In this document: positions 25,294-60,588 of the stretch, piece after piece
Layout of the letters: each line of letters starts with the position of its first letter
How positions within the stretch are numbered: position 1 is the first letter of the stretch
IMG/VR virus record: IMGVR_UViG_3300045988_142085
Location: 160,001 to 224,000 of that record
Strand: one strand, 5' to 3'
Source: a virus
DNA length: 64,000 nt
Made by a program: the position numbers and the translations under genes
Notes under the pieces: model-generated
Told to the model about the DNA's origin: nothing
The model's input: only the letters and a program-made list of their open reading frames with translations
Databases searched by the model: none

Positions 25294-25659
25294 TTAATAC
25301 ACTGAGCCTCCATTATCTTGACCATTTTCATCTGGGAAGATATCGCTCTTTAGTTCGCTTTCTTGGTATATTTCAGAACCGTAATCTGCAATCCAGCGAC
25401 CAGTAACAAGAGGACGATCCCCGTATGCTTCAATTATAACATAATCTCCGCCTTTTGGGAACCAATCATCAGGTGAATTTGTTTGTACTGGCATAGCAGG
25501 CTCAGTTATTGTTTCGCCATTTTGTGAAGTATACGTTACTGTACAAGTGCAAGTTTTAGGGTCAGATCCTAAGACTGACCCTTTCAACTTTGCAAACCCG
25601 TCATTACGGATCTGTTGTCCAGCATATGTATCTTTAAATTTATTCTGTATTACTGACAT
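25294..25659 (-). CDS. baseplate spike OB-fold protein, gpV/gp5-N-like (121 aa)
   Basis: The pattern G-x-V...C-x-V-x-V...ET...LP...WFPKGGDYVIIEAYGDRPLVTGRWI matches the OB-fold of P2 gpV-type spike proteins (...P-x-vGd-x-V-x-v-x-f-x-gGd...vlG). It sits directly after the tape-measure candidate, as in P2/Mu-like modules. Confidence 0.5.
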   Translation of the reverse strand: MSVIQNKFKDTYAGQQIRNDGFAKLKGSVLGSDPKTCTCTVTYTSQNGETITEPAMPVQTNSPDDWFPKGGDYVIIEAYGDRPLVTGRWIADYGSEIYQESELKSDIFPDENGQDNGGSVY

Positions 25660-35044: not shown

Positions 35045-38000
35045 TTATAATACACTATCTAAATAATTGCTAATATCGTTAGCATTCATATCTTCATATT
35101 TAGATGTAACTCTTGTCGTAACAGTTGCGCTACCGCCAGAACCTACAATATTTGGCATAGCATTTAACGCAGCAACTGCAGCTTGTGGATCTTGACTTGT
35201 CGAAGTTGCTACATTGATTATATAACCACCATTAGCAGCACCTTGTTGAGGTTGAACTAAACGAACTGACGTATTAGAATTATTAATTTGCTGAGCTGAT
35301 GTATTGTCGACATCTGGAATCGGAGAAGCCGATCCATAACCAGCAACAAGAATCGAAGAACCTAAAGCAGCCATTGCTCCTAAAACAGATTTACTTCGTG
35401 CCTTACGAACAATATCCATAGCTTTAACTTCGCCACTTCTTAATTTTGCCATACGTTCAGCAACACCAGAACCAATTAAAGACTCATTCATCTTAACAGC
35501 TTGAATTTGCTCTTCAGGATTGTTTACGATAGGGGCCATATTATTTAAAGCAGAATTATTAATAATCGCTTCTTGAGAAGCGCTATGCATATCGTTTGTA
35601 CTTCTAAACATAGAATGCCTATCACCGGTAATGCTTACACCGAGATCTAGTTGAGCTAATGTAGATCTAAGATTTAATTTGTTTTTCTCCATATAAGAAG
35701 CAATTGCTTCGGTCATATTAGATGTCTGCTGCTTAAATTGTTGTCGAACATATTCGTCGGCAGCACCTTGAATTTCTTCAGCGCTTTTACCTTGTAATCC
35801 ACTGTTCGCAATAAAATCAGAGTTATTAGCAACCGCATCGACCATAGTCGATAAAGATTCTTGTTTCCGCTTCATTTCAGACCATATAGCTTTATTATAT
35901 GTATCGTCTGTAATAAGGTTACCAATATTACGAATATCTTCAGCTGTCTGGGCATGTTTTGTCAAATCGGTAAACACATCGGCAAACTGATTCATTACGT
36001 CGGCAGTAGCACTGCCAGCATTCTTTGCCGACAAACGAGCTTCTTGAACACCGATAGCTACAGTAGAAGCCGTATGCCCTAACTTTATTCCGCCAGAATA
36101 TTGAGTCATAAACTCTTCATTGAATCCGACATCGTTAGCTAATTTTTGTAAATTCTTTAACGGGTTATATGTTTGACCAGCATAGCTTGAAGCTTTATGA
36201 GTTTTTGCAAGAGTATTACTATCTGCACCTTCTATTGTAACATCACTTACTGTTTTTGTCGATGGATCGTAACTTCTTCTTGCTGTTTCTTGGAATGTTA
36301 CGGCACTATTATCCATAGCAGATGTAAGTAATAAACTGTCGTCGGTCATACCAGAATTAGTAATAATGTCTTCATTCATCTTAATTAGCTTAATTTGGTC
36401 ACCGTCATAGTCGAGGCCTTTACCTTTAGCCATAAGCTGATTAGTTCTTACTTCATTCTCGGCAAGACCTTTATTTAAATAAATTTTACCGAAATCTACA
36501 GATGTAGGATAGTCGAATGGATAACGTCCGACGCCCATCATCATACCTTCAGTTTCAAGTTGCTTAATTTTAGCAGCTCGACCTGCAGCATCTAGTCCGT
36601 CAAATACACCTAGCTTTTCAAAGACATCGATAGAGGCTTCACCAAAGCTTGTACTTAAACCGGCCTTTTGGGCTTCTTTAATCGTCATTCCGCCAGCAAA
36701 TTTTCGAGACGAAATAAAGTTTTCATCGAAATCGAATACGTTCGTAGCAGCTGCTTGAATACTTTCACCAAGATAAGCAGAACTTGTCGATTCTAATATA
36801 TGACCCTTGCCTCTTAAGTTTTTAGTAACATTATCACGTAAACTATTGTAGGCTTGATCCATATTATCTTTTAACTTAGCAGCTTCTTCGGTATATTGAA
36901 CGCCGTCTTGAATTTCCATTTCGCCAAGTTTTTGTGCCGAATCAAAGAACGATTTAATTTGTGCTTTCGTTTCTGGACTGTGAGCACTTTGCGGAATATA
37001 CATTTCATATTTTCTGCCGCCGATTGTATCGCTAAATTTACCTGATTTATATTCACCAGTTTTCCTATAGTGATTAATCATTTCATCGATAGTAAGAGGA
37101 GAGTCTATATCGTTAAGGGCTTTTCTAAATACTTCTCTTTCTTTATCAGTGCCTTTAGTGCCAGCAATAATATCGGCGAAATCTCGAGTATCGTCTGCCA
37201 TACGACCACCTTTATTATTTCGGTAATCGGCAGCATGATGAGATAAACGTTCGGCAAATTCTTCGACATAATCTTTAGTAGCTTTAATACCTTTTTCATC
37301 GAATAAATCGTATACGAATTTCTCCAATGACGTATCGGCAAAGTCGCCAGCCTGAGCAAGTTTTTGACGAGATTTTCTAGCAGCACGAGAATAACGAGTT
37401 CCGTTCATCGCAGCATCGGATAATTTTTCACCGTAATTAATTTCACCGGTTATATTATCATATACACCAGTTGCAGCTAAAGACTCTTGCAACGTACCAG
37501 TCGGATCTATAACTTTTAATAATTCTTTAGCTGTTTTCGCACCGACTTTTAATTCTCTTACTTTCATTAATTCATTCTGATTGAATACGGCATGTTGTAG
37601 CTCACCGATGTAATCTTTTGAATAAGCCGTAACTTGTTGAGCCGTTACTTTACCAGAAACACCCATAGTTAATTTATCAACGTCACTAAGTTTTTGTACG
37701 AGTTTTTCATCCTGATCTTTAAGCATAATTTTAAAGATGTCGCCAAAATTCTTGCCGTCTTTTATTTCATATACGCCTTCGGTAAACATAACTCTATTTA
37801 ATTTCTCATCGAAATAAATAGCGCCTTTGTTAAATAATTCTATTGAACCAGACTCGTTTAAATTGTCGACGGCTTTTCTCATAAATGCACGTTTAACGTC
37901 CATAGGTTCATCGGCAATATTATCTAACCATTGTTGTGTTAAACCTGCGATATCTTTACGTTTAACCATCTCTTGTTCACCTTGAATAATATCGATCGGT

Positions 38001-41000
38001 GATCCATGGTTAACCGTTTTAGCTAATGCATTAGCGATAACATTACGTTCTGTATTAATACGTTTTTTAATTGCGGCGTAAGCCTGTTCTTTAGATGCAT
38101 CTTGAGTTAAGCCGACTTCTAAGAGTAAACTCTTACGCATTTTTCTCAAATTCTGAGTTAGCCGATTTTTATCGCCAGAATAATAATGATAAGCAATTTC
38201 GTTAAGATCGCCAGATAAGAATTTAGTAATACCTTCTGTATTAAATTTTAATCCGACCATATTGCCAAAACCTGTATCATTTAAAATTTTAGCAATATTT
38301 TTATCGACTTCACCTAAACCGAAACCTAACACCGATGTTGTTTGTTTAGCGTTCCCAACAAACAATTTACGAGCCACATCTCTAAAGTTATGCAATACCA
38401 TTCTAGTATCGATACCTTTAGATTTAAGTGCATCAATCATTCCTTTAATATCATCAGGTTTGTTTTTAACACTTAATTCTTGTAGCATCTTTGATATTTT
38501 AGATTCAGAAACAATATTATTATCGGCATCGACAAAATGAATTCGACCAAATAAATTACTTTTAGCAGTTTTAGATGTTGCACCAGAAAATTCAGTATCC
38601 ATCGAAGTCTCGACAATATCTTGACCTCTTAAGAATACCGCATCAGAAACTTCTTTTAATTCGAATTTACCGTCGGCATTTATTTTAATCGGAACATGAC
38701 GTTCGATAAATTCTTTACTGATATCTTTATTACCGGCTAAGTTAATAGCTTCACCGCCATGTAATCCATAGGTCGATTGACTTAATGCATCGGCAAGTTC
38801 TGGAGAAATCTTAGCAGAACCTTCGATATTAGATTTTAAAGCTCGAGAATACTCGCCATACAATTTATCGACTTCGTTGGAACTTAAAGTACGATGATAT
38901 TCGTTTTCTATACTCGTTACAATTTCGTTGAAAGACTTGTCGATAATTTCTTGACCTTCTTTATCGTGCTGTAACAACATAGTATTCGTATTGAGCACGG
39001 CTCTATTTGTATCGGCTTTAACCGAGCCTATCCAGGATTTATCGGTATAATAACGAGCAGGATCATCGCCATGATCGAGAGCTACTTGTTCGACACCTTC
39101 TCGTAATAACGTTCTGGATTGACCAGCAGATTGTTGATAACTACGTTCATTACCAGGGCTAATAGCAGAAGCATTAGTCGCCGTATCATATCGTTTAGCG
39201 CCTTTAAGCACTTTAGCGTTATGATTTGTTTCACTCTTCGTAATATTTTGTTCTTCGTATTTTATATCAGATAGAATAGCATATTCATTACCAGAATATC
39301 GAGTACTTGTTTTTAATGTACCATCATCGTTATAAATAATTCTGCCTTCACTATCATATTTAAAATCGTAAGTATCAATACCGACAAAATTCTTTTCGAT
39401 AAATTGTTCATCATGAAGTACTGCATCTAGTCCTTTAGAAGAATCTTTAGGATTAAGTAATGCATTAATCGCATTCTGCGATTTACTAGACGGAGTATAA
39501 TCTTTAAATAAATCTCCGCTTTTGCCATCCCATGCTGGATTAATTGTCTTAAAGAAATTAATTACGTCGTCTCGACCAGCGCCTTGTTCGACAACACCCA
39601 TCTTAACGAAATGATCGACAGTTAATACATTAGTATTAAATAATTCAGGAAGAGATCGTATAATATCTCTTTTATGGTCGGTAAGATTTTTTAGCGCGAT
39701 ATTTGAATCAGAGGTTCTTAATATTTCTGGTTTATCTAAATCGAAACCTTTATCACCAGGAGATAAACCTATTTTATTAGGGTTTGCTTGAGCATTTTTA
39801 AGAACGTTAGTTAATACTTCACCGATACTAGCATTTTTATCGGTCTTTAACCATCCTTTAACAGACGGAAGTATATGATCGAAGTTAGATAGTTCTCTCG
39901 CCACATATTGTAATGCTGGCTTAACTTTTGCCTCGCCGCCATCCATATGAATAGACCTAACAGCTCGTTGGGTGAAGCTCATATCGACAGCGCTGTTGCC
40001 ATGTTGGAAAGCAAAGTTGCCGCCATTAGTGTATACTACTCGAGATAAATATTTACTAATATCGTAGAATTTATTGCCTTCGACAATCGCGACGGTATTT
40101 CCTCGAATCGATAAGTTAGCATTGTTACCAAGACTAGCTACAATTTGATTGGCAATACTTGTCATTTGTTTATCGATCGTATTAAAACGAGCCGATAATA
40201 CTTTGTCTGGTTGAAGACCTTTATAGCGATCGATAAACATGTCTTCAGTAAGACCATTCATTAAATAGCCTTTTAATCGTTGGCTTGCATCGACTGGACT
40301 TTTGCTTAAACCGTCTGCAGCAGATTTAGCTACCGATCTTAATATAGTCTTCTGTGCATCAGAAGTAATAATTGCCTTACCCGGGGTTAAATCATAGCTT
40401 CTAAAAGCCTCATCGTGAGGATTACGTTGTTGGTATGTTTGTAACTCTCTGATAAAGAACTCAGACATATCTCTAAACGATATATCGTCTTGAGCTTTTA
40501 AATCGTTAAAACGTTTAGTAATGTTAGATAAAGCGCCACCACGCTTTTCGAGCTTATTCGCAAAATAATTAAACCGATCAATTAATTGTGTCGGCGTAAT
40601 CGTTCTATTGGTACCATACGTTCTAAGTTTTTTCTCGAGTGTAGCAGCAGCCATATTAAAATCTTTTTCTTTTAGGCTTAAACTGAATTCTACGCCACTA
40701 AGATTTTGAGGGCCAGCAAGTCCGGCCAAGAATTTATCATCAATTCTAAAACGAGAATCATAAGATACTTCGCTATTACGAATCATACGAGTGTATTCAT
40801 TCATAACAGATTGCATTACGTAGTCAGATGCAATCTTATCATGTTCTAATCCACTTGCCGCAATTTCTCTTGCTGCTGTCGAGATCAAGAAATGATTATC
40901 TTTAGAATTAATATTATTTAAAATTTCTTTAACGGCACCGAATGAAGGGATATATCCTTTTTCAGGATTATATCGCTCTTTCATGCCGGCTGCTATTTTT

Positions 41001-42802
41001 TCGATTGAACGAGCAAATGCTCCTTTATCGATACCGCCAAGATCTTCGACAGTATAACCCGACATTGCTTCAGCAACAGATTTACCTAACTCAATATGAT
41101 CTTGAAGAATTGTTGCTGCAGCCAACTGCTGTTTCTTAGTAGAGAATGTACTAACAATAGGATCGATAACAAAATTTTCTCGACTATAAGTCGCCGACTG
41201 AATTTTGTCGATAACGTTACCACGAGATTGTCGTTGATAAGAACGTACTAATAAATTATTAAAAGTATCTTCTGCCGTATTTGCCATACCAATACCTAAA
41301 GAGTTCGTCGCAATTTTCATGCCAGGCATATTATATTGCATACCGTCTTTAGTACGTTGAGCAATCGGTACAAAAGATTCCATAAATTGATTTTCTAAAT
41401 TTTCTTTTGTTCCGACAATATATCGTAATGCACCGTCTTGACCTGTTAGCTCAACCATGTGTAAATCATGGCTACCATTAATACCAAGTTGGCCAGCATT
41501 CTCTGCTATATAACGACCAAGATTAAGATCGTTATGATCGAGTTTCATTACTTTGCTTACTTCGTAAACAGCATTCGTTTTAAAAGTAGAACCTCGATAT
41601 GCCGTATAATTTTTGCCGTCGACATGACGCATATTATATTCTGGGAAAATATATTCTCCGCCATTACGTTCAAACGTTAATAAACCAGAGTTTCTTCCCC
41701 ATACAGAATTAATATTGCTTACAAATGTACCGGCTTTAATTTCTTGCATATTCGATTTATTATCGGCAATTACTTTAGCAGCCGATTCTAAATAAGATCG
41801 GAAGTATTCATTGTTATATAATTGCTCCAATACAGAAATATCGGCGCCAGCATCATGGGCCTTAGACACATCGATACCGAGCATACGAGCAAAATCTTCT
41901 TGTCGCAAACTAGAGCCCTTAATATAATAGGCTCCGAGTCGACCAGCTTTAGTTTGTTTGGCTCCGCGCAATATAGAGTCTTTATATGCTCGAGACATTG
42001 CTTCAGGATCTAAAGTAATCGCTGTTTTAATCGTTTTAAAAATATCGAAATGATTTTTAGTTGCTATTTTATTAACTGCTCTTGTCCCTAATGTTCTAGT
42101 AATATCGGGAGACTCACGTAAAGCAGTCGATACTTTATTAACGTCGAAGAACTGACTATTAAAACCAATTACTTGTGTGCCAGAAGAAATGTGCTGATCT
42201 ATTTCTCTAGCTATATTATTTAAACCGTCTTGATGATTGTTAGATAAATAATCGATACCAAGACCAATTAATTTGGTTTTATCGTCGGCATCGTTTAATG
42301 CTTCGAGTGCGCCACCGGAACTCATGTTGTTAGCATTTTTACCGATACGAGCTAATGTATCGTAAGCAACTTTTTCTTCTCGAGTTGCTGTATCATAATT
42401 GAATGTACCGTTATCAAATTTTAATCGCAACAAAGATGCTTGATCTTTTGTTAAGCCATTCATAACGACACGAGTGCCGTTCTCATCTTTTGCAGCATAT
42501 TGCCAAATAATATCTGGCGTTCTTACTGCTCTATCTTGACCGTCGACATTTACGAGTACAGACGGAATTGTTTCAATATCGAAAAAATAAGATTTCGCGT
42601 CCGAAGGCGGCAATACCTTAGCTTTATTATTTAAGGATAAAGCGGAGTCAGACGCTGACTCAATCGCCAGCGTCATATCCTTTCTTCTATTTAAATTAGC
42701 TTTTTCTAATAATTCAATAAGATGACTAGGTGCACCAAACGATTCTTTATTAAAAGCATCGTATGTCGGTCTCCTAGTTATATAAGTAAAATCTTGATCC
42801 AT
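35045..42802 (-). CDS. giant protein (2585 aa) with a DYDGDQ motif; candidate virion-associated enzyme (RNAP-like?)
   Basis: ATG at 42800..42802 with AAGGA upstream. Residues 2131-2135 are DYDGD (nt 36398..36412), followed by Q and preceded by ...GRYPFDYPTSVDFGKIYLNKG...LMAKGKG, reminiscent of the R-x-P ... NADFDGDQ double-psi beta-barrel context of two-barrel RNA polymerases. The C-terminal end has a hydrophobic/Gly segment. Function is speculative. Confidence 0.45.
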   Translation of the reverse strand: MDQDFTYITRRPTYDAFNKESFGAPSHLIELLEKANLNRRKDMTLAIESASDSALSLNNKAKVLPPSDAKSYFFDIETIPSVLVNVDGQDRAVRTPDIIWQYAAKDENGTRVVMNGLTKDQASLLRLKFDNGTFNYDTATREEKVAYDTLARIGKNANNMSSGGALEALNDADDKTKLIGLGIDYLSNNHQDGLNNIAREIDQHISSGTQVIGFNSQFFDVNKVSTALRESPDITRTLGTRAVNKIATKNHFDIFKTIKTAITLDPEAMSRAYKDSILRGAKQTKAGRLGAYYIKGSSLRQEDFARMLGIDVSKAHDAGADISVLEQLYNNEYFRSYLESAAKVIADNKSNMQEIKAGTFVSNINSVWGRNSGLLTFERNGGEYIFPEYNMRHVDGKNYTAYRGSTFKTNAVYEVSKVMKLDHNDLNLGRYIAENAGQLGINGSHDLHMVELTGQDGALRYIVGTKENLENQFMESFVPIAQRTKDGMQYNMPGMKIATNSLGIGMANTAEDTFNNLLVRSYQRQSRGNVIDKIQSATYSRENFVIDPIVSTFSTKKQQLAAATILQDHIELGKSVAEAMSGYTVEDLGGIDKGAFARSIEKIAAGMKERYNPEKGYIPSFGAVKEILNNINSKDNHFLISTAAREIAASGLEHDKIASDYVMQSVMNEYTRMIRNSEVSYDSRFRIDDKFLAGLAGPQNLSGVEFSLSLKEKDFNMAAATLEKKLRTYGTNRTITPTQLIDRFNYFANKLEKRGGALSNITKRFNDLKAQDDISFRDMSEFFIRELQTYQQRNPHDEAFRSYDLTPGKAIITSDAQKTILRSVAKSAADGLSKSPVDASQRLKGYLMNGLTEDMFIDRYKGLQPDKVLSARFNTIDKQMTSIANQIVASLGNNANLSIRGNTVAIVEGNKFYDISKYLSRVVYTNGGNFAFQHGNSAVDMSFTQRAVRSIHMDGGEAKVKPALQYVARELSNFDHILPSVKGWLKTDKNASIGEVLTNVLKNAQANPNKIGLSPGDKGFDLDKPEILRTSDSNIALKNLTDHKRDIIRSLPELFNTNVLTVDHFVKMGVVEQGAGRDDVINFFKTINPAWDGKSGDLFKDYTPSSKSQNAINALLNPKDSSKGLDAVLHDEQFIEKNFVGIDTYDFKYDSEGRIIYNDDGTLKTSTRYSGNEYAILSDIKYEEQNITKSETNHNAKVLKGAKRYDTATNASAISPGNERSYQQSAGQSRTLLREGVEQVALDHGDDPARYYTDKSWIGSVKADTNRAVLNTNTMLLQHDKEGQEIIDKSFNEIVTSIENEYHRTLSSNEVDKLYGEYSRALKSNIEGSAKISPELADALSQSTYGLHGGEAINLAGNKDISKEFIERHVPIKINADGKFELKEVSDAVFLRGQDIVETSMDTEFSGATSKTAKSNLFGRIHFVDADNNIVSESKISKMLQELSVKNKPDDIKGMIDALKSKGIDTRMVLHNFRDVARKLFVGNAKQTTSVLGFGLGEVDKNIAKILNDTGFGNMVGLKFNTEGITKFLSGDLNEIAYHYYSGDKNRLTQNLRKMRKSLLLEVGLTQDASKEQAYAAIKKRINTERNVIANALAKTVNHGSPIDIIQGEQEMVKRKDIAGLTQQWLDNIADEPMDVKRAFMRKAVDNLNESGSIELFNKGAIYFDEKLNRVMFTEGVYEIKDGKNFGDIFKIMLKDQDEKLVQKLSDVDKLTMGVSGKVTAQQVTAYSKDYIGELQHAVFNQNELMKVRELKVGAKTAKELLKVIDPTGTLQESLAATGVYDNITGEINYGEKLSDAAMNGTRYSRAARKSRQKLAQAGDFADTSLEKFVYDLFDEKGIKATKDYVEEFAERLSHHAADYRNNKGGRMADDTRDFADIIAGTKGTDKEREVFRKALNDIDSPLTIDEMINHYRKTGEYKSGKFSDTIGGRKYEMYIPQSAHSPETKAQIKSFFDSAQKLGEMEIQDGVQYTEEAAKLKDNMDQAYNSLRDNVTKNLRGKGHILESTSSAYLGESIQAAATNVFDFDENFISSRKFAGGMTIKEAQKAGLSTSFGEASIDVFEKLGVFDGLDAAGRAAKIKQLETEGMMMGVGRYPFDYPTSVDFGKIYLNKGLAENEVRTNQLMAKGKGLDYDGDQIKLIKMNEDIITNSGMTDDSLLLTSAMDNSAVTFQETARRSYDPSTKTVSDVTIEGADSNTLAKTHKASSYAGQTYNPLKNLQKLANDVGFNEEFMTQYSGGIKLGHTASTVAIGVQEARLSAKNAGSATADVMNQFADVFTDLTKHAQTAEDIRNIGNLITDDTYNKAIWSEMKRKQESLSTMVDAVANNSDFIANSGLQGKSAEEIQGAADEYVRQQFKQQTSNMTEAIASYMEKNKLNLRSTLAQLDLGVSITGDRHSMFRSTNDMHSASQEAIINNSALNNMAPIVNNPEEQIQAVKMNESLIGSGVAERMAKLRSGEVKAMDIVRKARSKSVLGAMAALGSSILVAGYGSASPIPDVDNTSAQQINNSNTSVRLVQPQQGAANGGYIINVATSTSQDPQAAVAALNAMPNIVGSGGSATVTTRVTSKYEDMNANDISNYLDSVL

Positions 42803-42814
42803 TGTTTAATCCTT

Positions 42815-45800
42815 TTATAAGAATGATAACGCTTTATCTATTTTGTAACCAATAACAGAAGTTACATTAGTTACTATATCTATTATACCATCTTGTTGCG
42901 TAGGATTCACCTGTATTTGTTTTTCAGTTAAACCGATACCACTTAATACAGTATTGATTTTAGCTCGGACAGTAATAGGATCATCGCCATTTCTAATATT
43001 TTCTATATTAGGGGCGTTGATAACTTCTGGATCTTCATAGGTCGAAGAATAAATACCGAAGTCTGCATATTGCATTCCTTCATTGTATATTACTTTCGCC
43101 TTAATATCTTCAAGGTTAGAAGATGCCTCCCAACCTTGCCATAATGGCCCAGGAAGATTGTGCGTCGTAAAGTACGATTCATTAGATTCTGTTTCAGTTT
43201 CTTCTTGATACCATACAAGTTTTAATGCTTTAGCTAATGATGGAGATACGTTACGTAAGATAGCTCGTCGTTGTTTTTCGTTAGTTACTTTAGCAAACTC
43301 GACAAAATATTCTTTTTCGGTACTAGGTAATGCACGAATAATATCGGAATATTCACTATCTTTATTTAACGCATATACAGTAGATTCAGCTACTTGATGA
43401 TACATAATAGCCTGTTCTGTCCATTCGCCAGCAGCAAGTGTCGTCATATCTTCGCTAAGACGACCGAATTTTTTATTAATCCATTGAGCTAATGGATCGT
43501 TAGACGGAGTACCAGAAGTTAATACGGATGCCATCATATCGGTAATCGATACATCGCCATCCATCTCGGCACGAAGAGCTGCTTGATGTTGATATAACTT
43601 ATCGACATCAACGCCTTCTTCAGATTTAGCTTTTTCTTTAGCAGCTTCATATAGACCCATATATTTTATATAACGGAGTCTATCGAAGTATTCTTCTGTA
43701 TCCCAACGCTTTTCTACGTTATCAGGAGTATATACATGGTCGAGACCTAACGCCTCTGTAATCGGATTATTCTTAGCTAATGCGATCGCTAAACCAGTAC
43801 CAGCAAAAGCTGCAGCTTGTAGCATACGACTAGCACGAGTTCGCTTAGCAAAATCGACTAATTTTTCAATACCTTTATTATCGACATTGCCAAAGATACC
43901 TTCGGCAAATCTACCGATAATAGATTCGTCAGAAACAAATTTATCGAATAGATTTAAATGGCTTCCAATATCATAACCCATACGTCCCCATGCATATGTC
44001 GCATACATAGGATCGTCTGTCGATGTCGCCATTGCAAATGCATTACCGGCAAATCTAAACGCACGAGAAAGTTTTTCTTTACGTTCTACGGCATTAGCAC
44101 CAACAAAAGTAAAACGACCTGTGATTTCACCGGCTAATGCTGGACCGTCTAAATATGTCGAGGCAAATTTAGCAACAGCTAATCTAGATTTAGAAGCATT
44201 ATCTAAAGCTCGACTATTTAGTCCTTTATAATAACGATATGCACTATCGGCAACCAAATCTTTTACGAACGATGTTTTACTTTGTTCGAATGTCGGAACA
44301 AGCATCGTATCGATGATATCTTCCCATGAAGCAAAGCCGCTACCGTATAATTGATCACTACGATATTCTTCTAGTGGGTCATTAATTCTCATGAATTGAC
44401 TATGCAAAATCGGAATTTGTGCATGCGTAACTAATTCGGCAGCACTACCAAAAATACGTCCAAATGTATTGTAGTTAGCATATGCACCGGCAGCAGAACT
44501 GTCGTCCATATCGTATTCAGCTAACCCGACTTCTCGCAATGTATCCGAGATATTCTCGCCGTTTAAAAATAACGCTGCACGAATCGGAGCTTGTGGTGCA
44601 TCTGGATTATCGGTACGTTCTTCATCGTCGATACGCATTGTCACTCGTTGTCCAGGTTGGATAACTTGCAATAATTGTTGTTTCGACATGAAGCCGTTTT
44701 CTTTAAATTTTACACCGGCAATTTGATATAAACGATCGTCGCCAGCAATTTTAAATTTGCCGTTAGATAATACTTCTTCGATATGCCCTTCTTGAGACAC
44801 AGTCGTTTTTCCTAAGAATTTATAATTAAAGAAATCATGTTTTTTACCCTGATGTTTAACCATCTCTTCAGTATCTTGCAATACTTTTTTGGCTTCGTCA
44901 GAGTTCATCATCTTAACGATTTGTTTCCAATATTTATACTCTGGACTATTCGGAGCAATGTCGGCTAATATTTTATAACGGTCAATAGCACCATAGCCAT
45001 CAGATGCAAATTGATCTGGATGTAAAGCATTGATAGCTTCATATCCTTTACCAGGAAGACGAGCTTCTGCATTAGGTAGAGATGTATTATGCGTAGCAAA
45101 ACCAACAACACAAAAAGAATTATTTTGATTTACTTGATAGCCATATACTTCTTTAATAGTATTTATTTCTTTAATGTCTTCAATTCTTAAATAAAGATAT
45201 CCATTATTTATATAATGATGAGAAGATTCTCTTGCTCTGTTATTTATTGGTAATAATGATTTACCGAATAATAATTCAGACAGTATAGAAGCTTTTTTGC
45301 CCCTAATATTCAAACTATAAGATATTCCAGCTGTTACAAGATATTTAGTAATTCTTATTTTTTTAGAAGTTTTATTGTGAATATTTATTGATCCAACAAT
45401 ATTAAATCTTAATAATAATTTTCTTACTTGATACAACAATTTTTTATTGCAAGATGTAATACTAATCTTTTCTGTTTCCTTGCCATATCCAGATTTCATT
45501 ACAAAGTTAGATCCATCGCCACATATATAGCCTTCTAATAATCCTAGAACGCATTCTTCTTTTGCATCCCAGAAGAATTCTGGAATCTTCTTATCATGAG
45601 CACCTTTATTAAATAATACATCTAATAAAGATGCAATTATAGATGATCCAAAACGAGAATAAGCACCATTTGTAACGCCTGATCTTTTAAAAGAAAAGTT
45701 AATATATGAATCTATTTGCTTAAATCCTAAGAATGCATTATATGCATAATCTCGCTCATTAATATTATGAGCCATTCCAATGGAGCATCCATTGTTCCAG

Positions 45801-48800
45801 CCTTCTGCAAGGTATAAACCAAATGCATAACATATTTGTTTTGTTAATACAATTTTTCTAGGAATTCTTCTTATTTTTCTATTATGCTTTATGTAAGCTT
45901 GAACACTTTCGTAAACTCTATCATTCCAGTTCATTTTTTCTAAGAGTTTTTTTCTTTCTCCTCGATTAAATTTTGGAACGCCATATTTTTCAAAATATTC
46001 ATATATTTCAACAAATTGTCTATTTTTTGTATTAATTTTATATAAATATTTTTCTGTTGAAATATATTCTGGTAATAATAATCCTAAATCTAATATTATT
46101 TCTTGATTTTTAGATTTTGGAATAGGATAAGCGACATAGTTACCAATTTTAATGTCTTTTACTTTTTTCCAAGATAATCTATTTTTCAATAAATTAATAT
46201 CATATAATTTATATTTTTTTAAATGAATATTATGTTTATCTAATTTATAATCATAAATTAAATTATCTTGGAACATTTTTTTCCATAATTGACAAACATC
46301 ATTTATAGAAATATTAACAAGATCAGCTAAATCTTTTTTAGATGTTATTCCATTCTTTAATGCATTTAATACAGTATTTGCTCTTTTGTAATATGATAAA
46401 GAATTTCCAGATAATTCTTTTGTTACATTATTAGAAGATTCAGTAACTAATAATGGATGATTTTCAGAAAATTCATAATCAAATGCAAATAAACTATTAA
46501 CTTTTAACGAATAAACTTTTTCTTTTAATTCTATTTTACGACAGACAATTTTATTTACGACTGTATTTTGACCAGTATGATCAATAATTATTGATTGATT
46601 TTCTACTACTTCATCAGCAGCTAAATAGTCAAGATTGCCTATTTCTACCATTGTATTTTTTGAAATACAGTATGCATCGCCCATATAGAATTTTTCTGGA
46701 AGCCAAGCATGTTGATCTGCCATTGTATTCATCAACGGATTAACACGTCGTCTTCTCGAAAATTCCGGTAAGAAACGACGGCTAATTTCGGCTGTTTCAC
46801 CGCCGAGACCACCTATACCAGCATCCCAGAATTGACGAGTGAATGAATCGATATCGCCAGCATTAGCAATGAATTTAGATTCGTCACGGCCGAATGCTTG
46901 AGATCCGATATAACCATAAATACCGGTTAATAATCTTGAAGTAGTTTGTAATTCATCTAAATAATCACGACCACCATTTGAATTCATTAAATTATTATAT
47001 AGGTCGGCATTATTTAAAATTTCTTCCAACGATCCTTTAGGTCTACCACGTTTAACACGTTGTTGTATATACATACCATTAGGATTAGTATAAGGAGAAC
47101 TACCAGAATAAATAGCATTATTCATAGCAGAAATAGTACTTCCTGTGCCATTAGTAACAGGCTGTAAACTTGCTACTTCAGGATTTACTGTTCCGTCAGG
47201 ATTAATATACTTAACGTAATCGGCTGCCGATGCGTACATCGGTGCTTGTGGTGCATATTGTTGATCGCCACTTTGCACATATTCATTATCAGTCGGATGA
47301 TCGAATGCCGTAAAATCATATACGCCAAGACGTCCATTTTGGAATATTAGATAACGAGTATCTTGAGACTGCTCTTGTATTTGCTGGTTCATATGGTACA
47401 TGACTGCTTTAACGTCACGACCGAACCACATTCTATCCTCATGGTATTTTTTCTTAGGCTTAATTATTTCACCTAATGTCGGATTAAGAATTAAACCTTG
47501 AAGAGTATTAGATTCAAACAAAGGACCTGATTCTAAATAAGGTCTATCTTCTGAATGCATCTCTTCTAACCAATAAGGATTAAGAGCATATATTAATGGA
47601 GATAAAGGGTTAGATAATGTCGGTATTGGACTATGCATCCATTTATTAAAGTAACCGCCATAAATACCTTCAGTCTTATAATCAGACTTAGCTAACTTTA
47701 AACTATTATCTTCCCAATATGAAATACTAGAACCACGGAATTCATTCGTAGAACCCCATACCCAATAACGACCAGCACGAATTGGATCCTTACCGTTTTG
47801 ATAATAATCTAATCGTTCCTCATAAGATTGATAAGGGCGATAATCGCCACTGATATACTGGGCCATTGGGTTAGCCATTTTAGCTAACTTAAATACATCG
47901 GTTAACCCTGTAGCATCAGTAAATTTTCTAAAGCCTAAATCGATATTCGCTAAACCAGTTTGGAAATTTTCATTTAAATTAAATGTGTCGTCTGCCCAGT
48001 CAAATTGTGTATATAAAAAACTAGCAGGCAATACACGTTTAAATAAAAGTTTGTCGATTATTTCTAAGCTGCTTCTTGAGGCATTTTCATGTAGTCCAAG
48101 ACCATGACCAAATGTAAGAACTCGAGCAACTGCTCTTGTTGCAACGTTATTTACGACACCGGTAAAAGCACCTGGATCAAGCATATTAAGGCCGCCACTT
48201 AATCGGCTAACCATCTTATATAAAGTCGACCCTGCTACAGATAAATCATTTGCTGTGCTATTATTAGAAAAATCTAAATGGCCACCAGTAACTTTACCTA
48301 ACCATGTTGTTTGACTTAATTTAGAATTCGCAAACAATCCTTTAGCCGAATCAGAAATTCCTTGCATTAATCCATTAAGATCGCCACTATTCCAAGAAGT
48401 AATTATCTTCTTAACATCGAGCGATTTTCTTGCTAAAACTGGAGCAGCAGCATTTCCCTTTTTACCGAAATCATAATGGATATCTTTGCCATTACCTAAA
48501 TAATGCCCGAGTATTCTATCGGCTTCAGGACTATCGTCTAATGTATCTTGTATTTTCTTAAATACGGCAGAACCAATATCTTGCTTATCTCGATTAAAGT
48601 TATGTCGATCTTTAATAACGTTAATACCAGATTCTTTTTTATACTTTTCTAAAGTATACATATCTTTTAGTTTTTGTTTTTCACCTGGAGATATGTTTAA
48701 AGAATCTATTTTAGCATAAGCTTCTGCTTGTGTTTTGCCTAAAGAATCGACAGCATTTTTAACGACGGCTTCATTAACTGTTTCTTCGACAGATTTAATT

Positions 48801-50554
48801 TTATATAAAGCTTCACTACCGATACCGATACCGTCATCGCGTAAACGAGCATTAATTTTTTTGCCGTCGCTAGCAGCTTTAACGACACTTAATAAATCTA
48901 AGTTATCGACCTGATCAACGTCGATATCCCGCAAGATTCTTCTTTTAGCACTTTCACTTTTTGCATGATATACATCACGTATTTTAGAAAGTGTATCTTT
49001 TTTAATGCCTTCTTTTGATGCGGCTAAATCGAGAACGATTTTCTCAGTATTTTTTTCTAAGTCGATATCGATACTTTGTACGGCACGAGCATGAGAATAG
49101 GCACGTCTGCCTAATGCTGCTAATTCTGATTCGCTTAGCTGGTCTATATTAGTATTTCTTAATGCGTATAAATTATTGCCGTCTACATCAGTTAGTCTTT
49201 TAGCGCCTTCACTTCTGCCAAGCTGAGCCCAATTAGTTTTCTCTTGTTGAACACCATATTGACTCATTATACGACCATGATGAACTATATCGTCATTAGT
49301 AGAATGCCAATTGTATCCGCTAATATCCATTTGTTCCATCTTACCGGTCGTAAGATCTTGGCGATATAATTTGTCTCGATTACGAACTAATAATGTTCCT
49401 TCCTTTTGGAAGTTAGCCATACCGAGTTTAAACTGAGCGTTAGAATAAACATCGACGCCTAACTGATTTCGAGGCGATAAATCATCGAGACCAAATAACT
49501 TACCAGCTAATGTATCGCCGACAATTCCTTTTGCTTCAGATTTTATTTTATCTAAATTAGGAGTATTTAATACTTCGCCATCGACATACTTAGTGCTATC
49601 ATTATATTTAGCATTTTCAAATAAATCTGCTAAGAAAGCTGTTCTACTATCACTGCGTATTTTATCGAGAGCATTATCGACATCGATGATATCTCGTTTA
49701 CCGTTACGAGATACGATCGGAACATCGAGAGCACCATTATCGATTGCTGCATCAGCTTGCTTTTGTTTTACAAAATCGGCTAATGCAAAATCATGAATTT
49801 CTCCAGTCTTTTTAGCTTGATGCTTTTCTAGTAGTTCTCCAATATCTCTGATTTGATTCTCGATAAAATTCTCGGTAATCTTTTCGCCGCGGCCACCAAC
49901 ACTTTGCCAATCTTCAAAACTTTGTTTTCTTGTTAAGTTTCGAATAGTTCGTAATGCTACATTTGTATCATCAAATTCTGCATACTCTGACTCGCCATCC
50001 ATAACGACGTCTCTTAATGTATTTTTAAGACGTTCAGAGAACCCGACAGTGCCGTCATATCGTTGAGATGGAACGATATTATTAATAGCGTCGACCATGT
50101 TGTCGATCGTTGCTTGATTGACGCCGGCATCTTTAAAATCGGTTGCTATCGAATCGATTACTTGAGCATGATATAATCCTTGTAAATTCTTTTCTGCATC
50201 TGCTTGTAAATTTAATGTACGATTAAGAGTGTCACGAAGAATATCGGTTTGTTTGTCGGCCGTTACTGCAGATGAAGGTTTAGGAAAATTTCCTCTTAAT
50301 GCTTGATTAGCATATCCTTCTAACTCAGATAATGTAATAGCATTAGCGCCATCATCCGTTATTTTTGAGAGTCTACGCTCTACTTGTCCTATAATAGGAT
50401 CGAGTTTAGATAAAACTCTCGCCCCTCTTTTTGTTCTAGAAAAAGCAAAAGCGGCCCCGACGAGTCCGCCGGTAGCCGCTACTGTATCAACAAAAGAGTC
50501 GGCAGGACTATCAGAAGGAGCTTCTATTCCTTTAAATAAATAATCGTCAGCCAT
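42815..50554 (-). CDS. giant protein (2579 aa) interrupted by a 528-aa intein; extein function unknown
   Basis: ATG at 50552..50554. Long uninterrupted ORF; intein at residues 1296-1823 (see the separate feature). Preceded by two small chaperone-like genes. Confidence 0.55.
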   Translation of the reverse strand: MADDYLFKGIEAPSDSPADSFVDTVAATGGLVGAAFAFSRTKRGARVLSKLDPIIGQVERRLSKITDDGANAITLSELEGYANQALRGNFPKPSSAVTADKQTDILRDTLNRTLNLQADAEKNLQGLYHAQVIDSIATDFKDAGVNQATIDNMVDAINNIVPSQRYDGTVGFSERLKNTLRDVVMDGESEYAEFDDTNVALRTIRNLTRKQSFEDWQSVGGRGEKITENFIENQIRDIGELLEKHQAKKTGEIHDFALADFVKQKQADAAIDNGALDVPIVSRNGKRDIIDVDNALDKIRSDSRTAFLADLFENAKYNDSTKYVDGEVLNTPNLDKIKSEAKGIVGDTLAGKLFGLDDLSPRNQLGVDVYSNAQFKLGMANFQKEGTLLVRNRDKLYRQDLTTGKMEQMDISGYNWHSTNDDIVHHGRIMSQYGVQQEKTNWAQLGRSEGAKRLTDVDGNNLYALRNTNIDQLSESELAALGRRAYSHARAVQSIDIDLEKNTEKIVLDLAASKEGIKKDTLSKIRDVYHAKSESAKRRILRDIDVDQVDNLDLLSVVKAASDGKKINARLRDDGIGIGSEALYKIKSVEETVNEAVVKNAVDSLGKTQAEAYAKIDSLNISPGEKQKLKDMYTLEKYKKESGINVIKDRHNFNRDKQDIGSAVFKKIQDTLDDSPEADRILGHYLGNGKDIHYDFGKKGNAAAPVLARKSLDVKKIITSWNSGDLNGLMQGISDSAKGLFANSKLSQTTWLGKVTGGHLDFSNNSTANDLSVAGSTLYKMVSRLSGGLNMLDPGAFTGVVNNVATRAVARVLTFGHGLGLHENASRSSLEIIDKLLFKRVLPASFLYTQFDWADDTFNLNENFQTGLANIDLGFRKFTDATGLTDVFKLAKMANPMAQYISGDYRPYQSYEERLDYYQNGKDPIRAGRYWVWGSTNEFRGSSISYWEDNSLKLAKSDYKTEGIYGGYFNKWMHSPIPTLSNPLSPLIYALNPYWLEEMHSEDRPYLESGPLFESNTLQGLILNPTLGEIIKPKKKYHEDRMWFGRDVKAVMYHMNQQIQEQSQDTRYLIFQNGRLGVYDFTAFDHPTDNEYVQSGDQQYAPQAPMYASAADYVKYINPDGTVNPEVASLQPVTNGTGSTISAMNNAIYSGSSPYTNPNGMYIQQRVKRGRPKGSLEEILNNADLYNNLMNSNGGRDYLDELQTTSRLLTGIYGYIGSQAFGRDESKFIANAGDIDSFTRQFWDAGIGGLGGETAEISRRFLPEFSRRRRVNPLMNTMADQHAWLPEKFYMGDAYCISKNTMVEIGNLDYLAADEVVENQSIIIDHTGQNTVVNKIVCRKIELKEKVYSLKVNSLFAFDYEFSENHPLLVTESSNNVTKELSGNSLSYYKRANTVLNALKNGITSKKDLADLVNISINDVCQLWKKMFQDNLIYDYKLDKHNIHLKKYKLYDINLLKNRLSWKKVKDIKIGNYVAYPIPKSKNQEIILDLGLLLPEYISTEKYLYKINTKNRQFVEIYEYFEKYGVPKFNRGERKKLLEKMNWNDRVYESVQAYIKHNRKIRRIPRKIVLTKQICYAFGLYLAEGWNNGCSIGMAHNINERDYAYNAFLGFKQIDSYINFSFKRSGVTNGAYSRFGSSIIASLLDVLFNKGAHDKKIPEFFWDAKEECVLGLLEGYICGDGSNFVMKSGYGKETEKISITSCNKKLLYQVRKLLLRFNIVGSINIHNKTSKKIRITKYLVTAGISYSLNIRGKKASILSELLFGKSLLPINNRARESSHHYINNGYLYLRIEDIKEINTIKEVYGYQVNQNNSFCVVGFATHNTSLPNAEARLPGKGYEAINALHPDQFASDGYGAIDRYKILADIAPNSPEYKYWKQIVKMMNSDEAKKVLQDTEEMVKHQGKKHDFFNYKFLGKTTVSQEGHIEEVLSNGKFKIAGDDRLYQIAGVKFKENGFMSKQQLLQVIQPGQRVTMRIDDEERTDNPDAPQAPIRAALFLNGENISDTLREVGLAEYDMDDSSAAGAYANYNTFGRIFGSAAELVTHAQIPILHSQFMRINDPLEEYRSDQLYGSGFASWEDIIDTMLVPTFEQSKTSFVKDLVADSAYRYYKGLNSRALDNASKSRLAVAKFASTYLDGPALAGEITGRFTFVGANAVERKEKLSRAFRFAGNAFAMATSTDDPMYATYAWGRMGYDIGSHLNLFDKFVSDESIIGRFAEGIFGNVDNKGIEKLVDFAKRTRASRMLQAAAFAGTGLAIALAKNNPITEALGLDHVYTPDNVEKRWDTEEYFDRLRYIKYMGLYEAAKEKAKSEEGVDVDKLYQHQAALRAEMDGDVSITDMMASVLTSGTPSNDPLAQWINKKFGRLSEDMTTLAAGEWTEQAIMYHQVAESTVYALNKDSEYSDIIRALPSTEKEYFVEFAKVTNEKQRRAILRNVSPSLAKALKLVWYQEETETESNESYFTTHNLPGPLWQGWEASSNLEDIKAKVIYNEGMQYADFGIYSSTYEDPEVINAPNIENIRNGDDPITVRAKINTVLSGIGLTEKQIQVNPTQQDGIIDIVTNVTSVIGYKIDKALSFL
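45086..46669 (-). mobile_element. intein with LAGLIDADG homing-endonuclease domain (528 aa) inside the 2579-aa protein
   Basis: N-terminal junction MGDAY|CISKNTMVEIG (Cys1 codon at 46667..46669). C-terminal junction ...NNSFCVVGFATHN|TSLPN (His-Asn codons at 45086..45091, +1 Thr). Two LAGLIDADG motifs (ICYAFGLYLAEGW and LLGLLEGYICGDGSN). In frame: 3885 nt from the ORF start to Cys1; intein is 1584 nt. Confidence 0.85.
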
Positions 50555-50576: not shown

Positions 50577-51380
50577 TTAATTATTATTTCTAAGTTCAGC
50601 TAACTCTGCAAGTGTCATATCATGAGGATTTTTACCGCTTAATGCTACTTCACGAATAGAGTTTTCATCGCCTTGATTTACAAATGCTTCTGGGAACATA
50701 GCTTTTAGTTCGTCTTCAGACATTTGTTGTTTACGTCTTTTTGGACGTTTAACTGTTGGTTTTGGTTTTTTAATTTCTTCCGGAGGCTTTTCTCGTTGTT
50801 CTCTTAACTTATCGAAGTATTGTTTTTCTTCGTTAAACAAACGAGGATCGTCTTGTTTAAACGATACGTTACTGCCAGCATCGAGAAGTTTTTCCATATC
50901 GAGACCGCCACGACCATGGATGTTTTTTAAGATCCATTCGCTTCTTGCTAAGAAATCCATTGTTCTAACCATATCCCAATTATCGATATCTTCGATATCG
51001 TATTCAGGGAATGCTTCATGGATTACACAAGAGATTTGTTTATCGACATTTTGCATATTATCGACAGCATTTAAATAAAGAATTTCTCGGCCTCGTTTGC
51101 TCATGAAACTAGCATCGAGAATCTTCTGTGCTAAATCGGCAATAAGACCAGCTGGCTGTGCTCCGATATCGAAATTTTCAGGATATAAGATACAGTTATA
51201 ACAAACAATATCTTCACGCTCCACATCCATAAGTTGTTCATTTTCGAATAGCTCATAGTATTGTGAACGAGTTAACGGTCGATAAATTACGATACCGTCC
51301 GGGAATCCTGTATAAGTAAAAACAGTTTTATATTTTTCTTTTAGTTGTGTAAATATTTCATCGAAACGTAATTCTTCCAT
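50577..51380 (-). CDS. hypothetical protein (267 aa), possible tail assembly chaperone
   Basis: Position upstream of the giant genes; acidic N-terminal half and strongly basic tail (KKPKPTVKRPKRRKQQ). The functional call is positional only. Confidence 0.35.
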   Translation of the reverse strand: MEELRFDEIFTQLKEKYKTVFTYTGFPDGIVIYRPLTRSQYYELFENEQLMDVEREDIVCYNCILYPENFDIGAQPAGLIADLAQKILDASFMSKRGREILYLNAVDNMQNVDKQISCVIHEAFPEYDIEDIDNWDMVRTMDFLARSEWILKNIHGRGGLDMEKLLDAGSNVSFKQDDPRLFNEEKQYFDKLREQREKPPEEIKKPKPTVKRPKRRKQQMSEDELKAMFPEAFVNQGDENSIREVALSGKNPHDMTLAELAELRNNN

Positions 51381-60500: not shown

Positions 60501-60569
60501 TACAGAATTGACTTCGACGAATACACCAGGAAGATCTCGAAGGATTTCCTCTTTAAAGGTGAAAGCCAT
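57537..60569 (-). CDS. contractile tail sheath protein (1010 aa from ATG 60567..60569; the ORF track's TTG start at 60599 is unlikely)
   Basis: N-terminus MAFTFKEEILRDLPGVFVEV has the sheath PGV[FY]VEE motif. The C-terminal ~100 aa (RIIGAVERAIRRV...GVLLYDYIFDIANDVTALQYTYIDINYTIMPFNEIRQ) follow the conserved sheath C-terminal domain pattern (compare T4 gp18 ...GGIYEYRVVCD...FYIQPARSINYITLNF). AAGAGG lies 8 nt upstream of the internal ATG. Confidence 0.8.
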   Translation of the reverse strand: MAFTFKEEILRDLPGVFVEVNSVKKKLYDDSQFGTTDAVLCIGTAFDGPNGVPVPIYDPTYAKYTYGDTYDRTTKREVDLTAALSDAYNSGCRTLYGFRIGGSEAQKDFKLRSDDTLRLRVKSRFPSNKAKQVYFTFDNTPGQEVFTLYKPVSKATAYERYNAMVNDENEMIKIDIQLGLMGAGFNADTTISEVIRYINKHQLNNVVTLSIVNKKGQDVTLRNDSYDLAMGSIFPGTYFIGRKRSLIPCRTEVRTHVIKNKKSPKPFSSFTGKYFHTLRINTDVNAEYPIYSVMDKDLNEAFVTVGLKMYSHNDYLLTPGASALAFEEDDKDYEDTNMTNFQKYMKLGSGFAVTATAFPRTNSTGQYLTPRVKESEVKDKQYITAIGEGAYSVLQNADMPYRVLGSQICADTVIGGRLPKPKDFLKAFPIDVAMVNTVAAGAPVVDTEMFKLTPVINTKDVKHAPRSYKFSFVKIDDANAIVDDAIYQNEVFTVIPTVANEAALDLDNKTYEVGQTFFLQDTKEVKSITFDGKLQPAVSAHQKFKHFVTSDKIIEAEPATGNTVTFKDITALTDLQYDTAMNGLLSDADATTAAYYATTAAASAATAGTAKYVLLSVNDVLYVGKYDGGQVTPIGEYDILINKESRDDKVLAYVENFDCVDNRVIISVTDFNYRTVAEFISDLKDNVNFADTFAVEMTDNGIVEKDALIEEVLEPVLVGGKVALANLKADRTIDYDYTMRIPYRTPDNFARQFAQHCMYTELKTAHTHGVIGMERISDYTLSGVEQKFQDLKNLDLHLDLKRANGQSVIDDDGMPVDIGRAISCTFFQNNVPVYNSTYAYVGNGAGAYAGMVSALPVEQSPTNQKIGVNPLFELTTTQISDLTKKGIVTVKNTFTRGYVVTDGCTMADPTDALSRLNSVRIIGAVERAIRRVCEPFIGKQNKNSVRDAIRTGLTSELNKLKGVLLYDYIFDIANDVTALQYTYIDINYTIMPFNEIRQINNYIQIRQPGT

Positions 60570-60588
60570 ATTTAAACCTCTTAAGAAA

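Follow-up and report, generated by a model that had tools for sequence, protein, structure and literature searches.

A giant virion protein interrupted by a segment with the termini of an intein raises the question of whether the segment is a splicing, mobile element and, if so, what kind of site it has invaded. The locus lies in a 64,000-nt stretch of viral DNA (positions 160,001–224,000 of IMG/VR record IMGVR_UViG_3300045988_142085; hereafter the window, whose features described below are all on the minus strand), in which the ORF list and its translation give a minus-strand open reading frame (ORF; 42815..50554) for a precursor of 2579 aa. Residues 1296–1823 of this precursor (528 aa, 45086..46669) very probably constitute an active class 1 intein with a double-motif LAGLIDADG homing endonuclease, placed in frame in a protein similar to gp145 of Bacillus phage 0305phi8-36; its HINT domain also holds a module resembling a winged helix-turn-helix (wHTH). 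The assignment is based on alignment, Pfam matches, AlphaFold modeling, a clean insertion and base composition, and the predicted mature, spliced product has 2051 aa.

A precise insertion in the giant gene

Removal of residues 1296–1823 from the precursor leaves 2051 aa, exactly the length of the orthologs in 115 of the 120 clusters among the matches listed in a profile search. The intein-free orthologs share 94–97% identity with the spliced sequence, can be aligned over its residues 1–2051 with no gap and are mostly encoded on contigs of 200–237 kb. Thus, the N-extein (residues 1–1295, 46670..50554), which ends in ...NPLMNTMADQHAWLPEKFYMGDAY, aligns gaplessly with residues 1–1295 of the 2051-aa orthologs, and the C-extein (residues 1824–2579 plus the stop codon, 42815..45085) with their residues 1296–2051. 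At the DNA level, collinearity of the window with three intein-free loci (L007, L008 and L004) reaches up to 13 kb to either side and is broken only by the 1584-nt insert and ca. 12 nt of diverged flank. Continuity over the insertion site was found in 120 close orthologs and 16 distant homologs, including those of 0305phi8-36 and Edson. The reading frame is continuous over both intein junctions, the Thr at position +1 is the native residue in intein-free alleles too, and the G+C content is 24.6% in the intein vs. 37.3% in the remainder of the gene. Five contigs from independent assemblies, one of them of 236,270 bp, encode the 2579-aa product in identical form. The alignment to intein-free homologs, suggested in a preliminary description made from the sequence alone, thus reveals a clean insertion whose removal restores the length of the orthologs, a match far beyond chance.

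Splicing blocks, endonuclease motifs and predicted fold

Splicing blocks were assigned from a trimmed alignment with inteins of SufB, RNA polymerase and other hosts, the proteins in which a sequence search found relatives of the intein. Cys1 (precursor residue 1296, 46667–46669) is preceded by ...FYMGDAY, and the C-terminus, ...VGFATHN, falls at residue 1823 (45086–45088), immediately before Thr+1 (45083–45085). Block A (CISKNTMVEIGNL, 46631..46669), which provides the Cys1 nucleophile, aligns with CLPPNESII, CFKKGAPI and CVSKDTLVEVG of other inteins and is invariant among intein-bearing alleles. Block B (YEFSENHPLLV, intein residues 65–75, 46445..46477) contains Ser68-x-x-His71, a variant of TxxH, and aligns with TPNHPVL, TGSHPIL and TEDHPLL. 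Blocks F (EVYGYQVNQNNSFCV) and G (VGFATHN, with His527 and Asn528), at 45086..45151, align with VYNFSVEDDESYIA-HGIAVHN and similar sequences.

The endonuclease is represented by LAGLIDADG motif 1 (YAFGLYLAEGW, intein residues 281–291, 45797..45829; core GLYLAEG, catalytic Glu289) and motif 2 (LGLLEGYICGDGS, intein residues 375–387, 45509..45547; core GYICGDG, catalytic Asp385). Residues G284, Y286, E289 and G290 of motif 1 are invariant in intein alignments A3 and A4 and among the population alleles, as are G384, D385 and G386 of motif 2 wherever compared. The Pfam family LAGLIDADG_3 spans intein residues 372–438 (E = 1.5e-9, 38.5 bits vs. a cut-off of 22.5 bits), and alignment with other inteins places block D at KKIP, with Lys360 and Pro363.

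Compared with other inteins there are two insertions, one of ca. 60 residues before motif 1 and a helical, wHTH-like one of ca. 75 residues after block B. The latter (intein residues 86–160, 46190..46414) separates block B from the remaining HINT domain, shows a weak Pfam wHTH match (E = 0.061) and was modeled with helices at residues 88–134. In the intein alignments it occurs only in this intein family and in sequence P0018, and it is probably an extra DNA-binding module. In sequence, the intein is most closely related to P0018 itself (L005 257–1657, on a 2-kb ENA contig; 35% identity over 85%), in which both LAGLIDADG motifs are found together with the wHTH insertion. P0018 stops short of blocks F and G, and the frames upstream of it are broken; this fragmentary sequence may represent an intein in decay or a derivative that has become free-standing. 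Elsewhere in the window, a segment (13688–13888) of the 562-aa ORF at 13106–14794, for which Pfam gave no match, is 30% identical over 67 aa (E = 4e-4) to the wHTH-like intein residues 86–152.

An AlphaFold model of the intein, built on the intein alignment, reached a mean predicted local distance difference test score (pLDDT) of 81.4 and a predicted template modeling score of 0.79. A Foldseek search of the PDB with this model returned, among top matches with probability 1.00, PI-PkoII (2cw7, E = 7e-15), the TliVMA intein (E = 4e-14) and PI-SceI (E = 1e-11), followed by the free LAGLIDADG enzymes I-Tsp061I, I-DmoI and I-SceI (E = 6e-6 to 1e-3). As modeled, the protein contains both the HINT fold and the alpha-beta-beta-alpha-beta-beta-alpha fold of LAGLIDADG enzymes.

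The preliminary description had placed the intein and its termini (Cys1 after MGDAY, ...GFATHN, Thr+1) exactly, and the two LAGLIDADG motifs it reported are present. Its block B, IIIDHTGQNT, was mistaken: this sequence is a beta-strand of the N-terminal HINT lobe, and alignment with bona fide inteins identifies YEFSENHPLLV as the real block B. Its central proposal of a splicing intein is supported by the presence of all splicing blocks and of the +1 nucleophile, by the predicted HINT and LAGLIDADG folds and by the intein-free alleles.

Inteins at the same site in distant homologs

A HMMER search of 1.84 billion representatives, with a profile from a trimmed alignment, delimited a gp145 family of 1736 clusters at 50% identity, and the best 150 of these were surveyed for inteins at the same site. 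Inserts of 433–537 aa were found there in five cluster representatives (P0149, P0191, P0231, P0236 and P0280). These inteins are 25–37% identical to that of the window, their exteins being 29–40% identical, and share the pattern GD[PA][YF]/C[VL][ST]...SxxHP...GLY[LIC]AEG...GDG...[AV]THN/T, where slashes mark the junctions. Cys1, SxxHP, THN, Thr+1 and both LAGLIDADG motifs are kept in all five; with the intein of the window, S-x-x-H-P is present in six out of six and G[VF]ATHN likewise in the six. The preliminary description had reasoned that homologs retaining the segment without Cys1, His-Asn and the +1 nucleophile would point to a mere inserted endonuclease domain; the homologs show the opposite, which argues for a splicing intein.

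A conserved motif targeted by an intein and by introns

The intein splits the motif NPxxNTMPxWLPxxFxxGDPY / TxxPxGExRLPGxGYExLNxLHPDxxG..YGAFDRxKILADxAP (44927..46741; the slash marks the insertion site), as defined by conservation over 147 representatives and 23 full-length members of the family. The motif extends towards the N-terminus, FWDxxxGGxGGxxxEIxRRFxP...NPxxNTMPxWLPxxFxxGDPY/T, and is the densest near-invariant block of the family, with N441 and W446 conserved in 100% of the sequences and P448 in 99%.

Group I introns interrupt the same region in other members. In a homolog with 35% identity, an intron at L003 13948–14319 (contig logan:SRR34340273_2714; Rfam RF00028, 51.1 bits, E = 5.7e-12) is situated between ...FKVG and DPYTKVQKGEMRLPG, 9 nt upstream of the intein site; its 5′ exon ends in T and the intron in G, as is typical of group I. 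A second group I intron (L009 8448–8838; Rfam, 65.3 bits, E = 2.9e-16) follows LHPDQ[FY]G[KR], at ca. 29 codons downstream from the site of the intein. Eight representatives of 50% clusters (P0240, P0245, P0248, P0251, P0256, P0258, P0276 and P0287) stop at this second intron site, and all except P0258, whose tail is short and different, share similar intron-derived read-through tails (e.g., HNCRIKNVRIAGNSLE...). An Rfam search of the window identified no RNA family at gathering score, indicating that the window itself contains no intron. The gp145 family thus has one intein site and two group I intron sites within ca. 35 codons. Inteins and group I introns persist only where their precise removal is obligatory, that is, at residues that the host cannot change, and this clustering therefore singles out a short motif as the critical part of a family of virion proteins of ca. 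2000 residues.

Two further members of the family showed sequence changes of another kind. Representative P0167 (2136 aa) lacks ca. 35 residues at the insertion site (...WLPERYQFG/SYGAFDRFKILAD), including DPY...RLPGxGYExLNxLHPD; an element may have been lost imprecisely here, an in-frame event may have escaped annotation, or the assembly may be at fault. In P0165, an HNH-like segment of ca. 65 residues, EVHHIVPYSLNGSDDPSNMIMLNKEDHAWITNAH, forms an in-frame insertion towards the C-terminus, at around position 1840 in P0060 numbering (alignment columns 2695–2760), and matches Pfam HNH (E = 2.8e-5) and a PHROG homing endonuclease family (E = 2.8e-6).

Population variation and traces of mobility

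The 90% cluster of the precursor contains 114 distinct members, and the 15 listed are all 2577–2579 aa long. Comparison of 13 intein-bearing alleles of equal length showed 35% of variable positions in the intein vs. 10% in the exteins, with none among the catalytic residues. The ratio of non-synonymous to synonymous substitutions (dN/dS), calculated by the Nei-Gojobori method for the window against two other intein-bearing loci, was 0.15–0.22 for the whole intein (0.13 for HINT, 0.17 for LAGLIDADG, 0.30 for the wHTH-like insertion and 0.55 for the linker at residues 201–270) and 0.04–0.05 for the exteins. The low values in both domains show that the splicing and endonuclease activities are both under purifying selection. 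Synonymous divergence (dS) was similar in intein and exteins (0.37–0.50), so the higher divergence of the intein is due to relaxed constraint and not to greater age. We accordingly rejected an older or foreign origin of the intein, which its divergence had suggested.

By their exteins, the intein-bearing alleles fall in among those that lack the intein, and for 12 of the 13 alleles the nearest extein neighbor is intein-free, at distances down to 0.24% at the amino acid level. Thr+1 and the first C-extein residues (45068..45085) read TSLPNA in the window and TKVING in intein-free alleles, and are the most diverged stretch of the gene: against one intein-free allele, the C-side junction is the mismatch peak of the 6156-nt spliced gene, with 13 mismatches in 30 nt vs. 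a mean of 2.4. Nearly all intein-free orthologs have T-K-(V/I)-I-N-G here, and TSLP occurs in 0 of 120. Two intein subtypes, ca. 80% identical to each other, coexist in one population whose exteins are 94–97% identical (window vs. L010 and L011). The TSLP-type flank pairs with a subtype 88–90% identical to the intein of the window, and the TK(V/I)ING flank with a subtype 80–83% identical to it. We interpret the TSLP flank as a co-conversion tract from the donor; presence or absence of the intein, together with this flank signature, are indirect traces of the kind expected from homing with short co-conversion tracts.

Proposed mechanism and alternative explanations

Splicing and DNA cleavage by the intein are proposed here by analogy with established intein chemistry. 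Cys1 would attack the Tyr(-1)-Cys1 peptide bond in an N-S acyl shift, aided by Ser68 and His71 of block B, after which the hydroxyl of Thr+1 would take the N-extein by trans-esterification. Cyclization of Asn528, assisted by His527, would release the intein, and an O-N shift would yield the 2051-aa mature virion protein, with its motif restored as ...GDAY-TSLPNAEARLPG...; the tryptic peptide predicted over the spliced junction is FYMGDAYTSLPNAEAR. The freed intein, of ca. 61 kDa, could then act as a site-specific DNase that, in mixed infections, cuts intein-less alleles at ...GGCGATGCCTAT/ACAAAAGTCATAAATGGT..., and repair would copy the intein, at times with a few codons of the donor C-extein flank.

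Several points weigh against an active, homing intein. The Pfam Intein_splicing match scores 32.2 bits, under its 35.8-bit cut-off, and covers only the C-terminal blocks because the large insertions split the domain; a phmmer search of PDB sequences with the intein found nothing, and this made a comparison of folds necessary. Block B has Ser for Thr and block F has Gly at position 4 in place of the frequent Asp, but both residues are kept in the six same-site inteins. Of the three +1 nucleophiles, Thr is the one found least often. As to mobility, the similarity of intein and extein dS means that much of the history of the intein in this population may be vertical. Recombinational loss also contributes to the presence/absence pattern, where it is not separable from gain, and the pattern could owe as much to such loss as to fresh homing.

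The equal dS, which suggests a long residence, is also what might be seen if the intein were late in the homing cycle, still competent for splicing but with a dead endonuclease; its persistence would then be due solely to the rarity of precise deletions and to the dependence of an essential virion protein on splicing. Non-synonymous evolution four to five times faster than in the exteins and the dN/dS of the linker fit such a state. Nevertheless, the LAGLIDADG domain itself retains a ratio of 0.17, both catalytic acids and Lys360 and Pro363 of block D are invariant over inteins only 25–37% identical, and intein-bearing and intein-free alleles on nearly identical backgrounds, as well as intein-linked flank markers, are what ongoing homing predicts. 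We thus regard a dead endonuclease as unlikely.

Loss of splicing is far harder to reconcile with the data. A domesticated LAGLIDADG/HINT-like insertion that stays in the mature virion protein without ever being excised could account for the sub-threshold Intein_splicing score and the block F without the common Asp. Yet it would disrupt the most conserved motif of the family unless the segment were removed, at least 115 orthologs of exactly the spliced length function without it, the residues for all four splicing steps are kept in six lineages at 25–37% identity, and the fold matches that of true inteins; this explanation is very improbable. Least credible of all, to the point of being nearly negligible, is an assembly or annotation artefact, such as a chimeric contig or a free-standing homing endonuclease gene that was joined wrongly and read as in frame. 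Although the data are metagenomic, such an error would have to recur in the five independently assembled contigs with the identical product, one of them covering 236,270 bp, and in 114 distinct sequence variants of the intein-bearing allele, always leaving the frame continuous across both junctions. An active class 1 intein with its homing endonuclease hence remains, in our judgment, the very probable explanation.

The host protein and its phage

The source of the window is an uncultivated jumbo myophage of ca. 236 kb related to Bacillus phage 0305phi8-36, without a near match in the phage collection searched. By sequence similarity and gene order, the interrupted protein is the ortholog of gp145 of that phage (blastp, E = 2.7e-41; E = 4e-69 with the homolog of phage Edson). 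In tblastn searches of deposited phages, only 0305phi8-36-like jumbo phages of Bacillus and Moorella matched, with 28–31% identity, and the match lands on ORF145 of 0305phi8-36, annotated as a virion structural protein and identified by mass spectrometry.

The window and 0305phi8-36 share the gene order chaperonin, gp145, gene at the position of the tape measure protein (TMP), and hub/lysin. Immediately upstream of the interrupted gene, a 267-aa product (50577..51380) is homologous to the split tail chaperonin gp143/gp144 (blastp, E = 1.7e-14 and 8.7e-11). Downstream, a product of 2585 aa (35045..42802) occupies the place of gp146, the hypothetical TMP; it is assigned by position, shows no detectable sequence similarity to gp146 and has no PHROG match. 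It is followed by a homolog of gp147, the baseplate hub or tail lysin (3123 aa, 25659..35030; blastp, E = 6.5e-60), which matches PHROG 20474 'endolysin' (E = 4.5e-149) despite having no Pfam domain; the Pfam scan of the neighboring genes likewise identified no domain. The location among tail genes that the preliminary description had given to this protein is borne out by the synteny with gp143/144 and gp147. In the 0305phi8-36 comparison of Hardies et al. (PMC2147016), chaperonin, tape-measure and hub roles were assigned, the TMP role going to gp146, and the passages on tail roles do not mention gp145. A position directly after the chaperonin is TMP-like and insufficient alone for a TMP assignment, and no tape measure signature (Pfam, PHROG or NCBI-style TMP) was found in the exteins or in 23 relatives. 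The exteins did not match any Pfam or PHROG family either.

The protein has a hydrophobic N-terminal segment and an N-terminal region of ca. 800 residues with weak PDB matches to coiled coils and helical bundles only, part of it modeled as helices with low confidence, then a glycine-rich stretch and a conserved C-terminal domain. From position and make-up, it is most likely a protein of the tail lumen or one ejected from it.

The three consecutive giant genes (2579, 2585 and 3123 aa) occupy 25659–50554 of the window, and their products have no significant mutual similarity indicative of paralogy. This arrangement suggested a crAss-like virion RNA polymerase, which we rejected because the tblastn matches and the synteny involve only 0305phi8-36-like Bacillus and Moorella jumbo phages. 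Further along, a 1020-aa ORF with a TTG start (57537–60599) has a sub-threshold match to the C-terminal domain of phage tail sheath proteins (Pfam PF17482, E = 3e-4) and probably encodes an enlarged tail sheath protein.

Function at the insertion site and the SNase-like domain

Profile searches of Pfam, PHROGs and the PDB revealed no domain at the insertion site. Scans of the 23 relatives produced only sporadic matches to staphylococcal nuclease (SNase) and HNH, and PDB profile searches of the host family gave only a marginal SNase match (E = 0.046) and coiled-coil noise. The AlphaFold model of the host core, from an alignment of 11 sequences, had an overall pLDDT of 41.7, with values under 50 at the insertion site. 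Its sole confident part is an SNase-like domain with an oligonucleotide/oligosaccharide-binding (OB) fold, ca. 95–200 residues past the splice junction (44471..44806). The top 50 Foldseek matches of this domain were staphylococcal nuclease or SN domains of SND1, with target-normalized TM-scores (template modeling scores) of 0.55–0.62 for SNase chains. Pfam SNase matched 2 of the 23 relatives (best E = 8.6e-6) and did not match the protein of the window itself. In the hidden Markov model alignment, LLVDTPEF of SNase pairs with fklagvkf and GRGLAY with asikAa, from which equivalents of Asp40, Glu43 and Arg87 are absent; the set of catalytic Ca2+ and phosphate ligands of SNase (Asp21, Asp40, Glu43, Arg35 and Arg87) was not recovered. 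The domain is thus probably a non-catalytic module with a binding or structural role and not a nuclease. Modeling of the spliced extein, which the preliminary description had put forward as a way to identify the host domain, was of low confidence at the site itself and recognized a fold only downstream.

The preliminary description had also suggested an enzymatic or conserved core around the intein. The conserved core is corroborated by the densest block of the family and by the two introns nearby; for its enzymatic nature, no enzymatic domain was found at the site. We can tentatively speculate, with clearly more doubt than conviction, that the motif FWDxxxGGxGGxxxEIxRRFxP...LNxLHPD, of ca. 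100 residues, serves an undescribed activity, as its active site or as a site indispensable for some other reason, in a giant tail-lodged or tail-delivered protein. Together with the SNase-like module, candidate activities are those of an envelope-breaching, channel-forming or nucleic-acid-handling ejection protein. If this were true, self-splicing elements would mark the functional core of an unannotated protein family of more than 1700 clusters.

Implications

Proteins of the gp145-like family are widespread in jumbo phages and lack a functional annotation, and the motif is a defined target for mutagenesis. In addition, the homing polymorphism of the locus is well sampled: there are 114 variants with the intein, over 100 clusters without it and two subtypes that differ in their flanks, and selection can be measured on both domains. 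Models of how the homing cycle runs in populations of viruses could thus be tested on it. For annotation, the 2579-aa product should be treated as a mature protein of 2051 aa plus an endonuclease. The latter, which is unusual in its additional wHTH module, is a new candidate for an enzyme that cuts rarely.

Comparison with known systems

Inteins with LAGLIDADG endonucleases are textbook elements. Like PI-PkoII (2cw7), the TliVMA and PhoVMA inteins (7qsu, 7qss and 7qst) and PI-SceI (1vde and 1lws), the intein of the window has a double-motif LAGLIDADG endonuclease nested in a HINT splicing domain, as well as an additional region for DNA recognition; the structural matches to these archaeal and yeast bifunctional inteins have E-values of 7e-15 to 1e-9, and the block order A, B, C, D, E, H, F, G is common to them. 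It differs in its identity of only 11–13% in structural alignments, with no sequence-level PDB match, in its wHTH-like and ca. 60-aa insertions, in the SxxH of block B, the Gly at position 4 of block F and Thr+1, and in that its host is a phage virion protein and not a polymerase or an ATPase.

The premise of the preliminary description that inteins normally sit in enzymes is outdated, since actinobacteriophage inteins occur in tape measure, portal, minor capsid and baseplate-wedge-like proteins (bioRxiv 10.1101/2025.01.02.630785). Compared by description only, the intein of the window resembles these in having a virion or morphogenesis protein as host, in its LAGLIDADG architecture and in its local dissemination in phage populations, whereas those phages are siphoviruses and the window belongs to a 0305phi8-36-like jumbo myophage with an unannotated host family. 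The closest intein matches in deposited phage genomes are the TerL inteins of crAss-like phages (cr118_1 and cr131_1), over the LAGLIDADG and C-terminal splicing regions (intein residues ca. 280–528); however, these are only 26–28% identical over half of the intein and reside in a different gene. The gp145 of 0305phi8-36 and its homologs in Edson, WH1, KLEB27-3 and Moorella MTATph1 resemble the host protein, with 28–31% identity over the conserved core and C-terminus, but are intein-free at the site.

The DNA gyrase A gene of AR9-like jumbo phages contains an intein in MarsHill and introns in AR9 (bioRxiv 10.1101/2020.12.14.422802). As there, a single conserved gene is invaded by an intein or by group I introns, depending on the phage, although the target in the window is a virion protein and not a known enzyme. 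The literature searched contained no description of an intein in the gp145-like family, and the new features here are the family of the host, the way in which three insertion points fall together in a single motif, and the rich sampling of the polymorphism.

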